The notes under the pieces were generated by a model. It was not told the DNA's origin, did no database searches, and saw nothing but the letters and a program-made list of their open reading frames with translations. Made by a program: the position numbers and the translations under genes. Shown piece by piece: positions 4,007 to 9,376 of a DNA stretch of 64,000 nucleotides; the first letter of the stretch is position 1, and each line of letters starts with the position of its first letter. Source of the DNA: an uncultured Gemmatimonadaceae bacterium (GTDB lineage Bacteria > Gemmatimonadota > Gemmatimonadetes > Gemmatimonadales > Gemmatimonadaceae); NCBI GenBank assembly GCA_963822945.1, contig CAWGJO010000022.1:8182-72181 (forward strand), in the 5' to 3' direction.

Positions 4007-6226
4007 GTGATCACACTCTCCGTTCCCCGAAAGGCCCTGCTCGGGTTCGGGACGGCTCTGCTCATCCTCGCCGTGATGGGGGCGGAGTCGTACCGCGGCC
4101 TGCGCGCGTCGACGCAGGCATCGGTGCGCGTCCGCGAGACGTACGACGCCCTGGAGACGCTCGGCGAGCTCGAGGGCGATATGCTCGATGCCGAGTCGGC
4201 CGTGCGGGGGCTGCTGCTCACCCAGCGGCCGGAATTCCGGGGGCCGTACAAGGACGCTGCGCATCGGGTGGATCTCGATTTGTCGGGGCTCCGGCGCATC
4301 GAACCGGACAATCCGGCGCAGGCGGCGCGGGCGCGCATCCTTGCCGACTCGGTGACCGCCAAGCTCGCCTTCACCGCCGGCGTACTCTCGCTGTACGACG
4401 CGGGGCGGGTCACGGCGGCGCGCGATACGGTGGCGGCCGGACGTGGGGCACGGCTTGCCACGTCCATCCGCCAGCAGGTGTCGCGGATGATGCGGGCCGA
4501 GCGGGCCCTGCTGGATCGGCGCCTCGAGGACGAACGCGCGCAACAGCAGCTGGCCACGACGATCGTCCTGTTCGGGTTCCTGGTGGCGTGCGGGGTGGCG
4601 ACGCTGGCCGTGATCACCATCAGGCGCGATATGCGCGAACGCGCGAACCTGGATGCCGAGGTCGCGGCGGCGCTGGACCAGGCGCACGCCGCCAGCAAGG
4701 CCAAGAGCGAGTTCCTGGCCCGCATGAGCCATGAACTGCGCACCCCGCTCAATTCCGTGATCGGCTTCGCCAACGTGTTGCTCAAGCAGGGCCAGCCGCC
4801 GTCGGACGATCAGGCACGGGCCTACGTCCAGCGCATCCGCGACAACGGCACCCACTTGCTGGAGATCATCAACGACATCCTGGACCTGTCCAAGGTCGAG
4901 TCGGGGCGCATGGACCTGGTGCTGGAGACGGTGGACGTCACCCGCCTCCTGACCGAGACGGTGAGCCAGTTCGCGGCTCGCGGGCTGGACGCGCCGCCCA
5001 TCGAAGTGGATGTGTGGCCCGGCGTGGCCCCGCTGCGTACCGATCCCGACAAGCTGCGGCAGGTGCTGCTCAACCTGATCTCGAACGCCGCGAAGTTCAC
5101 CAGCCAGGGGCGCATCGTGGTGCGGGGCGTTGCCGATGCCCGCACCGGGGACCTGCAGCGCATCGACGTCATCGACACCGGCGTCGGCATCGCGGCGGAT
5201 CGGATGGACCGGATTTTCGAGGCCTTCGAGCAGGCCGACAGCTCGGTGCAGCGGCGGTTCGGGGGCACGGGGCTGGGCCTCGCCATCTCCCGTTCGATGT
5301 GCGAGCGGCTCGGATACCGGCTGGTGGTCGTGAGCACGCCCGGCCTCGGATCGACGTTCAGCATCATCACGGACCAGCGGGCGCCGGTGCCCGCCCACCA
5401 CGAACCGCCGGGTGCGGTGGCCGGGCGCCGCCTCGAGCCGGCGCAGCAGCGCGCCGCGCGCGTGCTGCCGGTGGACTCCCCGACCGTCCTCGTCATCGAT
5501 GACAGTGACGACTCGCGGGTGCTGCTCACGCAGATCATCGAGGAGTCGGGGTGCCGGGTCTATACGGCCGGCTCCGGCGAGGGCGGTGTGTCGGCGGCGC
5601 TCGACCACCGGCCCGATCTCATCGTGCTCGATCTGCTGATGCCCGAGATGGACGGGATCGAAACGCTGCAGCGAATCCGGGCCCATCCGTCCATCGCCCG
5701 GACCCCGGTGATCGTGGTCAGCGCCGTGGCGTCGGATTACCAGTCGCGGCTGCCGGGCGCCGTGGAACTCATCGAGAAGCCGATCGTCCGCGAGGCGCTC
5801 AGCGACGCGATCGATCGCGCGCTGCACGCCAGTCCGGCGCGCGTGCTGATCATCGAGGATTCGGAGGATGCCCGGTCGCTGCTCGAAGCTCATCTGGCGG
5901 GATTCCCGGGCCTGGAGGTCGATTCAGCCCCATCCGCCCTCGACGCGCTGGCCAAGCTGCAGGACTTCCCCGCCGATCTGATTCTGCTCGACGTGGTGAT
6001 GCCGGGCATGGACGGGGTGGAGTTTCTCAAGCGCATCCGCCGCATCGAGCGCTTCCGGGAGACGCCGGTGGTGGTGATCACCGCGAAATCGCTCAGCGAG
6101 GACGAGCAGGGCGTGCTCGATCGCCACGCGATCACGGTGCTTCGCAAGGACGGAGAACTCGGCGCCGACCTCGCCCGGGTGCTCCGGAGCGCCCTCCGCC
6201 GGATCAGGGCCCGGTCGATATCCTGA
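4007..6226 (+). CDS. hybrid sensor histidine kinase: TM-CHASE3-like sensor-TM, HisKA, HATPase_c, two receiver domains
   Basis: ORF 3977..6226; I prefer GTG 4007 as start, which is uncertain. H-box SEFLARMSHELRTPLNSVIGF, N-box NLISNAAKFT, G-boxes DTGVGI and GGTGLGLAISR. REC1 VLVIDDSDD...LIVLDLLMPEMDG; REC2 VLIIEDSED...LILLDVVMPGMDG. Confidence 0.9.
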   Translation: MITLSVPRKALLGFGTALLILAVMGAESYRGLRASTQASVRVRETYDALETLGELEGDMLDAESAVRGLLLTQRPEFRGPYKDAAHRVDLDLSGLRRIEPDNPAQAARARILADSVTAKLAFTAGVLSLYDAGRVTAARDTVAAGRGARLATSIRQQVSRMMRAERALLDRRLEDERAQQQLATTIVLFGFLVACGVATLAVITIRRDMRERANLDAEVAAALDQAHAASKAKSEFLARMSHELRTPLNSVIGFANVLLKQGQPPSDDQARAYVQRIRDNGTHLLEIINDILDLSKVESGRMDLVLETVDVTRLLTETVSQFAARGLDAPPIEVDVWPGVAPLRTDPDKLRQVLLNLISNAAKFTSQGRIVVRGVADARTGDLQRIDVIDTGVGIAADRMDRIFEAFEQADSSVQRRFGGTGLGLAISRSMCERLGYRLVVVSTPGLGSTFSIITDQRAPVPAHHEPPGAVAGRRLEPAQQRAARVLPVDSPTVLVIDDSDDSRVLLTQIIEESGCRVYTAGSGEGGVSAALDHRPDLIVLDLLMPEMDGIETLQRIRAHPSIARTPVIVVSAVASDYQSRLPGAVELIEKPIVREALSDAIDRALHASPARVLIIEDSEDARSLLEAHLAGFPGLEVDSAPSALDALAKLQDFPADLILLDVVMPGMDGVEFLKRIRRIERFRETPVVVITAKSLSEDEQGVLDRHAITVLRKDGELGADLARVLRSALRRIRARSIS

Positions 6227-6250
6227 GGAACGGGGCCTATCGTGTTGCCA

Positions 6251-6282
6251 TGACGCGGCTTACGCGTCTGTAATACGCGTCA
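6251..6282. promoter_or_regulatory. cluster of three ACGCGTC/GACGCG(T) heptamers just downstream of the kinase stop (hairpin and/or operator)
   Basis: TGACGCG-gctt-ACGCGTC-tgtaat-ACGCGTCA. The first two copies can form a 6-bp GC stem. Function not established. Confidence 0.25.
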
Positions 6283-6416
6283 CATTCGCGGCCCGTTGCG
6301 TGAGCTATCTATGGGCGCACAGATTGCGCCTACGCTCGGGGCCGGGCAGCCTCGTTCAGGCATGATCGTCGCGGGCGGATTCGACGCGGATTCCGCGCAG
6401 GGAGAGGCATACACGG

Positions 6417-8570: not shown

Positions 8571-8642
8571 CGCGCGCGGGTCACGGCCGGGTACGTTTCG
8601 ACGCCGAACGTGCCGGATTCAACGGGCTACGTTCGACGCAAA

Positions 8643-9005
8643 ATGGATTCCGAATTCACCGAACGATTCGATGACGAAGCCATTGCTCGCCTCCGGCGGT
8701 TCGGAGGCGACGCGCTCCTGCACGAGATGATCGATCTTCTCTCCGCGGGGGCGCCTGCGCGGTTGGCCGTGGTGCGCGATGCCATCGCCAACGGCGATGC
8801 GGAGGCCGTCCGCGGCGTCCTGCATTCGCTCAAGTCCAGCGCCGGTCAGATGGGCGCGATGGGGGTGCAGGCGATGTGCGAGCGCGCCGAACGCCTGGCC
8901 GCGCAGGGCGACGTACGGGGTGTTGCCGCGCTGCTCCCGGCCCTGGAGGCCGAGACGGATGCGCTGCTGGCGCGGCTGGCCGTCATCCGGCGGGGCAACG
9001 CGTGA
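8643..9005 (+). CDS. histidine phosphotransfer (Hpt) protein
   Basis: ORF 8610..9005, ATG at 8643 preferred. Hpt signature VLHSLKSSAGQMGA inside a four-helix-like Ala/Leu-rich sequence. Confidence 0.8.
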   Translation: MDSEFTERFDDEAIARLRRFGGDALLHEMIDLLSAGAPARLAVVRDAIANGDAEAVRGVLHSLKSSAGQMGAMGVQAMCERAERLAAQGDVRGVAALLPALEAETDALLARLAVIRRGNA

Positions 9006-9376
9006 GGCCTCGCATCGCCGTAGTGGAGGACAATCCCGACAATCGGCTCCTGCTGCAGGCCATCCTGCGCGATCGCTTTACCGTGCTGGAATACGAGAAC
9101 GGGGTCGACGCCCTCGGCGGGTTCGCCGCGGATCCCCCCGACGTCGTGCTGCTCGATATCTCGCTGCCCGGCATGGACGGGCTCGAGATTCTGGCGCGCA
9201 TCCGCGCCGACACGACGCTCGCCGGCCTGCCGGTGATCGCGCTGACCGCCCACGCCATGGCCGGCGACCGCGAGAAGTATCTCGCGGCGGGATTCGACGA
9301 TTACCTCACCAAGCCGATCGTCGACGAGACGCTGCTCATGCGGGCGATCGAGAAGCAACTGGCGGCCGGCGGCTGA
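9002..9376 (+). CDS. single-domain CheY-like response regulator
   Basis: In-frame part of ORF 8876..9376. GTG 9002 overlaps the Hpt stop (GTGA). RIAVVEDNPDN, VVLLDISLPGMDG, IALTAHAM, LTKP. Confidence 0.9.
   Translation: MRPRIAVVEDNPDNRLLLQAILRDRFTVLEYENGVDALGGFAADPPDVVLLDISLPGMDGLEILARIRADTTLAGLPVIALTAHAMAGDREKYLAAGFDDYLTKPIVDETLLMRAIEKQLAAGG

Follow-up and report, generated by a model that had tools for sequence, protein, structure and literature searches.

Gene content of the locus

Gemmatimonadota are abundant in soil and have few cultured members. Here we describe, within a 64,000-nt stretch of DNA from an uncultured Gemmatimonadaceae bacterium (contig CAWGJO010000022.1; hereafter the window, with a G+C content of about 70%), a locus in which the genes of a phosphorelay stand beside a gene for a PilB/GspE-type secretion ATPase. 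We consider it probable that the relay is genetically coupled to this ATPase, a four-cysteine protein of the extension type, that the receiver domain of the motor has decayed, and that control is now exerted through contact. The four same-strand genes listed in a preliminary description of this DNA were confirmed, with their domains, gaps and overlap, by translation and Pfam searches, and a conserved spacer between the first two was recognized by alignment with six relatives:

4007-6226, plus strand: hybrid histidine kinase, 739 amino acids (alternative TTG start at 3977, plus strand)
6227-6416, plus strand: conserved spacer with a candidate promoter, a leader and a ribosome-binding site before the ATG at 6417
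6417-8570, plus strand: PilB/GspE-type ATPase, 717 amino acids
8643-9005, plus strand: Hpt phosphotransfer protein, 120 amino acids
9002-9376, plus strand: CheY-like single-domain receiver, 124 amino acids

The kinase and ATPase genes are separated by 190 nt and the ATPase and Hpt genes by 72 nt, and the Hpt and receiver genes overlap by 4 nt. GC content by codon position (0.72/0.48/0.88) favours these four plus-strand frames and identifies the long minus-strand open reading frames (ORFs) of the region as high-GC shadows. The window ATPase is matched by a 100%-identical database entry (P0001) and a 97%-identical relative (P0002).

Alignment of the spacer revealed invariant blocks. The candidate promoter, at 6245-6274, consists of a -35-like TTGCCA (6245-6250) and a -10-like TGTAAT (6269-6274) separated by 18 nt, and the leader, GGCGGATTCGACGCGGATTCCGCGCAGGGAGAGG, is conserved. 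The assignment of this putative promoter rests on conservation; a consensus scan of the plus strand from 3700 to 9600 called neither a promoter nor a terminator-like site. The spacer also contains a repeated ACGCGTC motif, and the invariant leader GGCGGATTCGACGCGGAYTCCGCG could pair as a short hairpin just 5' of the ribosome-binding site.

The phosphorelay proteins

The kinase combines a CHASE3 sensor domain (83.9 bits), HisKA (75.5 bits), HATPase_c (85.5 bits) and two Response_reg stretches totalling 148.5 bits, placed by Pfam as follows:

4121-4528, plus strand: CHASE3
4700-4906, plus strand: HisKA, with the H-box SHELRTPLN
5039-5371, plus strand: HATPase_c
5486-5812, plus strand: receiver 1
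about 5834-6202, plus strand: receiver 2

The Hpt protein (47.5 bits) carries its conserved histidine within the motif HSLKSSAGQMGA, and the free receiver (93.9 bits) has the Glu-Asp pair, the acceptor aspartate (LLDISLPGMDG), the threonine (ALTA) and the lysine (TKP). Every domain of a multi-step phosphorelay thus scores above its cut-off, and the key His, Asp, Thr and Lys residues can be read directly from the translations. From this we infer a His-Asp-His-Asp relay in which phosphate would pass from the kinase to its own receivers, then to Hpt and on to the CheY-like receiver. Neither the four genes nor the scanned ORFs of the window contain CheA-type kinase, CheW or chemoreceptor domains, as a system of the Pil-Chp or Tax type would.

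Kinase orthologues (65-95% identity) are confined to a closer Gemmatimonadaceae clade. Among the loci with the most divergent ATPases, the free receiver retains 71-78% identity to the window copy, against 37-56% for Hpt. An overlapping operon in locus L040 (8001-11022) encodes a CHASE3 hybrid kinase (45% identical to that of the window), Hpt and a receiver (71%) without the ATPase, which speaks for a relay that functions as a unit, with the ATPase variably placed in it.

Directly 5' of the CHASE3 kinase gene lies a gene for a Ser/Thr protein kinase of 782 amino acids with a weak zinc-ribbon match (window 1523-3871, plus strand). The same pairing of kinases is repeated in L002, L006, L007, L009-L012 and L039, and the Ser/Thr kinase may belong to the same signalling neighbourhood.

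An ATPase of the extension type

The ATPase and its tail are divided as follows:

6417-6821, plus strand: N-terminal domain of the GspE/PilB N1 type, residues 1-135 (AlphaFold2 predicted local distance difference test, pLDDT, 88-96)
6927-8066, plus strand: core of N2 and C-terminal domains, residues 171-550, with Walker A and B motifs, Asp and His boxes and a four-Cys Zn site
8112-8282, plus strand: pseudo-receiver stub, residues 566-622, strand 1 to strand 3 (Pfam, AlphaFold2 and alignment)
8283-8510, plus strand: disordered low-complexity linker, residues 623-698, in place of helix 3 to strand 5 (pLDDT about 30)
8511-8570, plus strand: terminal helix, NWSRAAGAVQNAVRRALR, and stop codon (alignment; AlphaFold2 helix at 701-716)

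Its match to Pfam T2SSE (PF00437; 400.5 bits against a cut-off of 24.9) places the protein among the PilT-like secretion ATPases of the additional-strand, catalytic-glutamate (ASCE) class, and the N-terminus matches MshEN/T2SSE_N (55.2 bits, residues 58-129). The catalytic motifs that had been described as intact are all there, namely Walker A (GPTGSGKTT), the Asp box (VEDPIEYE), Walker B (DPDVIFVGEIRD) and the His box (TGHLVLATLHTN), and their residues are mostly invariant across 87 homologues, in which the four cysteines (C448, C451, C481 and C484) are invariant. The four-Cys site and the N1 domain mark it as an extension ATPase of the PilB/GspE type and not a PilT. A sequence search of the PDB agrees, with PilF, PilB and GspE recovered at E values of about 1e-103 to 1e-106 and scores of about 350-360 bits, against about 120 bits for PilT. 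Foldseek (probability 1.0) aligned 482 columns to the GspE of the GspE-GspL complex 4pht, which suggests a GspE-like N1 able to dock a partner of the PilM/GspL type. At the level of NCBIfam equivalogs, the ATPase falls below the cut-offs both for GspE (TIGR02533; 492.4 bits against 630.25) and for the PilB of type IVa pili (TIGR02538; 471.8 bits against 675.65).

The MshEN-like N-terminus raised the possibility of input from cyclic di-GMP (c-di-GMP), which in MshE-type proteins is bound by a tandem N-terminal motif, RLGxx(L/V/I)(L/V/I)xxG(L/V/I)(L/V/I)xxxxLxxxLxxQ (PMC5013675). None of 240 family members, the window ATPase included, matched a regular expression for this motif, and we therefore rejected this input.

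The tail is half a receiver

The region after about residue 560 had been described as a C-terminal receiver-like domain, and neither profile nor structure prediction bore this out. The Pfam Response_reg match (PF00072) reaches 23.5 bits, below the cut-off of 30.2, and covers only profile positions 1-55 of 111 (residues 569-624). In an AlphaFold2 model built on 87 homologues, a strand-helix-strand-helix-strand unit spans residues 568-617 (pLDDT about 80-87); after it come a disordered stretch at 622-698 (pLDDT about 30) and one further helix at 701-716. Where a full (beta-alpha)5 fold should stand, the model has three strands and two helices and then disorder, and the tail is accordingly predicted to be a half receiver with a remnant of helix 5. 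The residues of receiver chemistry are likewise missing: the acidic pair is Asn-Pro (ILILNPDP), the acceptor position holds Glu (VITEASLP), and the Thr and Lys are absent. The terminal helix is homologous by alignment to helix 5 of full receivers (KPIDPPRFLARVKAALRR) and has lost the conserved Lys.

Across 107 homologues, the tail consists of a conserved block of 60 residues (ILVVNADPAWRRMARALLEGGGFRVTEA...FALMVTDLMMP), a variable linker rich in Pro and Ala, and a conserved end (VDWARFAATVQSSIRRTEH). Mean pairwise identity is 70% in the stub, 72% in N1 and 56% in the terminal helix, against 23-34% in the flanking linkers (23% in the disordered linker), and W701 is nearly invariant across the 87 homologues. 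These values suggest that the stub and the helix 5 remnant are under purifying selection and are not drifting freely. The linker itself contains a tandem repeat of 6/12 nt at 8404-8479 (Tandem Repeats Finder; consensus ACGGGAACGGGC, about five copies), which encodes a GHGNGHGNG run; tract length differs among close relatives, and the linker of P0002 is 12 residues shorter at the repeat.

Probable origin of the tail from a full receiver

Scanning the genome collection with a profile of the tail returned 28 loci, all from Gemmatimonadaceae or from metagenome-assembled genomes of Gemmatimonadota. One of these, L032, encodes two tandem ATPases, the first with a half tail and the second with a complete receiver (87.9 bits, profile positions 1-110 of 111). 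A search with this second copy yielded more than 120 proteins of about 692 residues, all PF00072-bearing and all from Gemmatimonadota. When half tails, full-receiver sisters, CheY and the free receiver of the window were aligned, homology extended to the level of residues: the half tail aligns to strand 1 through strand 3 of the full receiver, and a remnant in the linker, LRPTTAVP, aligns to LRSxxQTAMLPVI, which spans helix 3 to strand 4.

The two families differ sharply in a residue census. Full-receiver proteins (n = 120) have the Asp-Asp pair in 111 cases, the acceptor Asp in 96, the Thr in 114 and the Lys in 117. Half-tail proteins have Asn-Ala/Pro/Ser at the position of the pair in 109 of 115, and lack the Thr and the Lys; their acceptor position holds Asp in 92 and Glu in 16, the latter being the clade of the window. 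In a neighbour-joining tree with midpoint rooting, the half-tail family forms one clade. As judged by the alignment, the window tail is a decayed full receiver, and the one duplicated locus together with the unrooted tree suggests an ancestral ATPase form with an intact C-terminal receiver. With its Asp pair, Thr and Lys gone and its acceptor replaced by Glu, the tail is very unlikely to be phosphorylated directly.

Conservation of the gene block

The window proteins were mapped onto 40 fetched loci, of which 27 are distinct syntenic Gemmatimonadota loci with ATPase identities of 58-96%. An Hpt orthologue lies 3' of the ATPase in 25 of the 27, and Hpt and the free receiver are both found there in 24; the receiver is missing from L001, only a remnant of Hpt is left in L018, and neither gene occurs within 1.9 kb in L016. 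The Hpt and receiver genes overlap in L035 as they do in the window, and nearly abut in L036. The linkage of relay and ATPase is beyond chance. It extends to the full-receiver family, as the slot in L035 holds an RCC1-like gene, a full-receiver ATPase, Hpt and a receiver, followed by convergent MacB/ABC, GDSL lipase and elongation factor P (EF-P) genes, and L036 has a full-receiver ATPase in the same slot with the same flanks, without the RCC1-like gene.

The order kinase-ATPase-Hpt-receiver that had been proposed as a possible conserved unit therefore held for its last three genes and not for the first, as the kinase adjoins in about 12 of the 27 loci and in most relatives the place next to the ATPase on its 5' side is taken by an RCC1-like gene. 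This gene, predicted to encode a beta-propeller with a lipoprotein signal (e.g., MRRLACAVLAVALAAC), stands directly 5' of the ATPase in about 18 of the 27 loci, for example:

L002, 8612-9838: RCC1-like lipoprotein gene
L032, 6880-8160: RCC1-like lipoprotein gene
L035, 8686-9927: RCC1-like lipoprotein gene

It is absent from 6227-6416 of the window and from the nearest relatives (L006-L010 and L013), and a tblastn search of the window found no RCC1-like remnant, second full-receiver ATPase, secretin or pilin. Among the best 120 matches to the CHASE3 kinase, none lay on the 2.89-Mb or 479-kb contigs of the distant clade.

On the 3' side of the relay (window 9459-16061), a convergent pair of genes for a MacB-type permease of 880 amino acids with two FtsX domains and for an ABC ATPase is followed by the genes for a GDSL lipase and EF-P. 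The order MacB/ABC-GDSL lipase-EF-P is kept across Gemmatimonadota, including the full-receiver loci L035 and L036.

A widespread ATPase-receiver family and its links to filaments

The preliminary description regarded the pairing of a motor ATPase with a relay, and its fusion to a receiver, as an unusual arrangement. Such fusions turned out not to be rare: among the best 150 of 15,837 cluster representatives recovered by HMMER with E < 1e-30, 76, or about half, carry a C-terminal receiver, mostly of full length. Among the representatives whose clusters were looked up, a Gemmatimonadota, a Planctomycetota and a Zixibacteria name each occurred once. On the Zixibacteria contig (L038), a single block holds an N_methyl pilin-like gene, the ATPase-receiver, a weak Hpt (21.7 bits), a PAS hybrid kinase and a receiver, in an order that differs from that of the window. 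On the Planctomycetota contig (L037), the ATPase bears both a zinc ribbon and a receiver, and its gene lies beside a secretin gene, several pilin-like genes, PilN/O-like genes and the gene for a second, plain ATPase. In a Gemmatimonadales locus (L034, 3122-12178), a full-receiver ATPase begins 4 nt after a PAS hybrid kinase, with genes for a GGDEF-receiver, a receiver-HD-GYP and two single receivers nearby; these neighbours hint at c-di-GMP cross-talk, although the N-terminus of the ATPase lacks the MshEN motif. The ATPase-receiver fusion is thus common in metagenomes and repeatedly tied to two-component genes and, outside Gemmatimonadota, to type IV filament genes as well.

The window itself is devoid of such genes, as had been stated for the immediate surroundings of the ATPase: none of its approximately 45 ORFs matches a pilin, PilC/GspF, secretin or PilMNOP family, and translation in six frames revealed no prepilin motif. 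The genes that accompany a GspE (gspC-M, a secretin and pseudopilins) are therefore absent from these 64 kb. However, a survey of more than 400 Gemmatimonadota genomes found pilus genes in all habitats but marine (PMC10581226), and its supplement shows PilM to be near-universal in the phylum, at a frequency like that of ribosomal proteins, which makes a filament machine elsewhere in the genome plausible.

In the literature, we found no description of PilB/GspE-receiver fusions or of Hpt-linked orphan ATPases, and nothing specific on the pili of Gemmatimonadota. A 2024 review of PilB cofactors, in which the words 'receiver' and 'fused' do not occur (PMC11656802), appears not to cover motor-receiver fusions. 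Automatic annotations (names assigned by the Joint Genome Institute, JGI) already flag both the ATPase and the receiver domains. Two-component control of pilus motors is a known theme, of which we regard the family as an uncharacterised variant and the window ATPase as a degenerate member of that family.

Control of the motor and competing explanations

The reading that we favour begins with the state preserved in the sister family. There, phosphorylated Hpt would serve two acceptors, the receiver of the motor and the free CheY-like receiver, so that the motor itself would be a response regulator and probably the second acceptor from Hpt, and the free receiver could be either a phosphate sink or another output, in the manner described for PilG and PilH in Pil-Chp (PMC11656802). 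In the window lineage, the segment from helix 3 to strand 5 would have turned into a disordered linker with loss of the Asp pair, Thr and Lys, the acceptor would have become Glu in the subclade, and the ATPase would no longer be phosphorylated. What control remains may be exerted by contact: Hpt, or the CheY-like receiver once phosphorylated, would bind to the conserved stub or to the motor, much as free response regulators bind PilB in Synechocystis and Xanthomonas. The machine driven by the motor is most likely a type IV filament system, pilus-like or secretion-like, with its genes at another site in the genome. Phosphorelay control of the motor, as first suggested for this locus, is therefore a fair reading of the family, given the linkage of relay and ATPase and the intact receivers of the sisters. 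It does not extend to the window ATPase in the form proposed, since the domain said to be fused to it and to accept phosphate is half of a receiver in a decayed state, which lacks the Asp pair, the Thr and the Lys and has Glu as its acceptor.

Several observations weigh against this reading. The CHASE3 kinase adjoins in only about 12 of the 27 loci, mostly those of the closer clade, plus L032; the RCC1-like gene has been lost in the subclade of the window; Hpt is reduced to a remnant in L018 and the receiver is missing in L001; and extra ATPase paralogues in L031 and L033 have no relay genes nearby. Together, these losses and relay-less paralogues suggest that the coupling may be weakening. 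The conserved candidate promoter in the 190-nt gap suggests that the ATPase operon is transcribed separately from the kinase. As the tree is rooted at its midpoint only, the case for a full receiver as the source of the tail depends chiefly on the alignment and on L032. Finally, no filament gene was found in the 10-kb flanks of the tabulated Gemmatimonadota loci (L001-L005 and L031-L036), which, with the 64 kb of the window, makes the machine served a conjecture. We also considered whether the paralogues in L031 and L033 belong to pilus loci and rejected this, as their neighbours are ArsR/AHSA1 genes in L031 and acyltransferase, NAGPA and other genes in L033.

Much of this would equally suit a relic adjacency, in which the ATPase is now the ordinary, constitutively regulated PilB-like motor of a pilus locus elsewhere, the stub is a leftover, the relay serves another output, and gene order is kept by inertia. 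A tail stripped of every phospho-chemistry residue, a low-complexity repeat inserted in its linker, the loss of the RCC1-like gene and of Hpt or receiver (L018 and L001), a relay without the ATPase (L040), ATPase paralogues without the relay (L031 and L033) and the near-universal PilM of the phylum (PMC10581226) are all in keeping with it. Nonetheless, we think a relic unlikely, though deserving of serious weight: a leftover would not be expected to keep 70% identity in the stub and 56% in the terminal helix while the linkers fall to 23-34%, and inertia accounts poorly for an ATPase-Hpt-receiver order kept in 24 of 27 loci that span 58-96% ATPase identity.

It is also conceivable, but in our judgement distinctly improbable, that the ATPase is not a filament motor at all and instead acts in signalling or as another NTPase, for example as a sensor of nucleotide state or as a partner of the RCC1-like lipoprotein or of the MacB-type transporter. 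Such a role would explain why no filament gene lies near the tabulated Gemmatimonadota loci and why the scores stay below the NCBIfam cut-offs (492 against 630 for GspE, 472 against 676 for PilB), and would fit the conserved synteny with the lipoprotein gene and the MacB/ABC pair; there is a precedent for signalling in Myxococcus PilB, which has been proposed to act as a nucleotide-state sensor in the control of exopolysaccharide (PMC5544727). However, the catalytic set of the protein is complete, its Zn site and GspE-like N1 domain are conserved as well, and its relatives in Zixibacteria and Planctomycetota adjoin pilin and secretin genes. The MacB/ABC pair, moreover, is convergent and belongs with EF-P to a larger block of synteny, so that its link to the ATPase may be one of position only. 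That the relay phosphorylates the ATPase tail here and so controls the motor directly, as first suggested, we regard as hardly credible, because the intact receiver of the sister family at the same position and the weak Pfam match that favour it are outweighed by a Glu acceptor, an Asn-Pro pair, a disordered linker where strand 4 (with the Thr) and strand 5 (with the Lys) should be, and a score below the cut-off over half of the profile.

Implications of a receiver-fused motor family

The switching of pilus and secretion motors is under active study, and the known switches use separate cofactors, whether c-di-GMP acting via MshEN, PilZ or FimX, or free regulators such as PilG/PilH, PixG and DrdR. 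Against this background, we tentatively propose, as a possibility on which we would not yet rely, that across Gemmatimonadota, Zixibacteria and Planctomycetota the PilB/GspE ATPases with a C-terminal receiver make up a broad, as yet unstudied class of response regulators, in which the hexameric motor would be the terminal acceptor of the relay and the free CheY-like receiver its competitor, and that in the window the receiver has turned into a docking stub that is independent of phosphorylation, with Glu at the acceptor position. If so, the window lineage would be a natural experiment in which control was rewired from covalent to contact-based, or the motor was locked in one state. With a family of receiver-fused motors and a dedicated Hpt, the phospho-control of a PilB-type hexamer could be reconstituted simply, from kinase, Hpt and motor alone, and the decayed version in the window would show how such control is lost or rewired. 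At a practical level, weak Response_reg matches on the tails of such ATPases should not be taken as evidence of phospho-acceptors.

Other genes of the window

Farther along the window, several ORFs cover only part of the family that they match:

22831-23286: COX1 N-terminal piece, 151 amino acids
28748-29830: C-terminal half of an OPT transporter
31913-32446: sigma-54 AAA+ fragment, 177 amino acids
34186-34788: LuxR-type regulator with a truncated receiver

Frameshifts introduced by errors of assembly, pseudogenes, or starts mis-called by a simple ORF caller may account for these partial matches. Two adjoining Sortilin/BNR-repeat proteins of 498 and 473 amino acids are encoded at 53947-56852 on the minus strand, and a Sortilin/BNR-repeat protein of 1,044 amino acids is encoded 5' of the kinase in L032.

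Comparison with known systems

The window ATPase shares the N1+N2+C-terminal architecture, the motifs and the four-Cys Zn site of PilB, PilF and GspE (Geobacter PilB 5tsh, Thermus PilF 5oiu and Vibrio GspE 4pht), with 36-45% identity in structural alignments. Unlike these proteins, it falls below both equivalog cut-offs, lacks the c-di-GMP motif and carries a receiver-derived C-terminal tail, and unlike their genes it is flanked by Hpt and CheY-like receiver genes and has no pil or gsp genes nearby. Nearer still are the full-receiver ATPases (P0187 and P0130; OQX90000.1 of Zixibacteria; MBI3269902.1 of Planctomycetota), which belong to the same subfamily with 53-62% identity. The full-receiver sisters occupy the same syntenic slot, with Hpt and receiver next to them, and have a tail that is homologous residue by residue. 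In them the Asp pair, the acceptor Asp, the Thr and the Lys are kept; in the window ATPase, the stretch from strand 1 to strand 3 and helix 5 are all that is left of the receiver, and the acceptor is Glu.

Among regulators of pilus motors, PilG and PilH of Pil-Chp in Pseudomonas are comparable as receiver-only proteins served by kinase and Hpt chemistry, in which two receivers compete for one phosphodonor (PMC11656802). Unlike Pil-Chp, the window has no CheA, CheW or chemoreceptor, and a CHASE3 hybrid kinase together with a free Hpt provides the input. Action of free response regulators on PilB is documented for PATAN regulators of Synechocystis (10.1101/2021.06.11.447907) and for DrdR of Xanthomonas (PMC13507683); the PATAN-receiver proteins PixG, PixH and TaxP of Synechocystis and DrdR and EmvR of Xanthomonas are separate receiver regulators that act on the pilus extension motor. 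In the ATPase-receiver family, by contrast, the receiver is fused to the motor.

As a receiver-derived module retained without acceptor chemistry, the stub resembles FimX and TadZ/CpaE. TadZ/CpaE has an atypical receiver that lost its phospho-chemistry and kept its role. The receiver domain of FimX lacks the acceptor Asp and is nevertheless needed for localisation (PMC11656802). Both, however, have a complete receiver fold, whereas in the window ATPase half of the fold is replaced by a linker predicted to be disordered.

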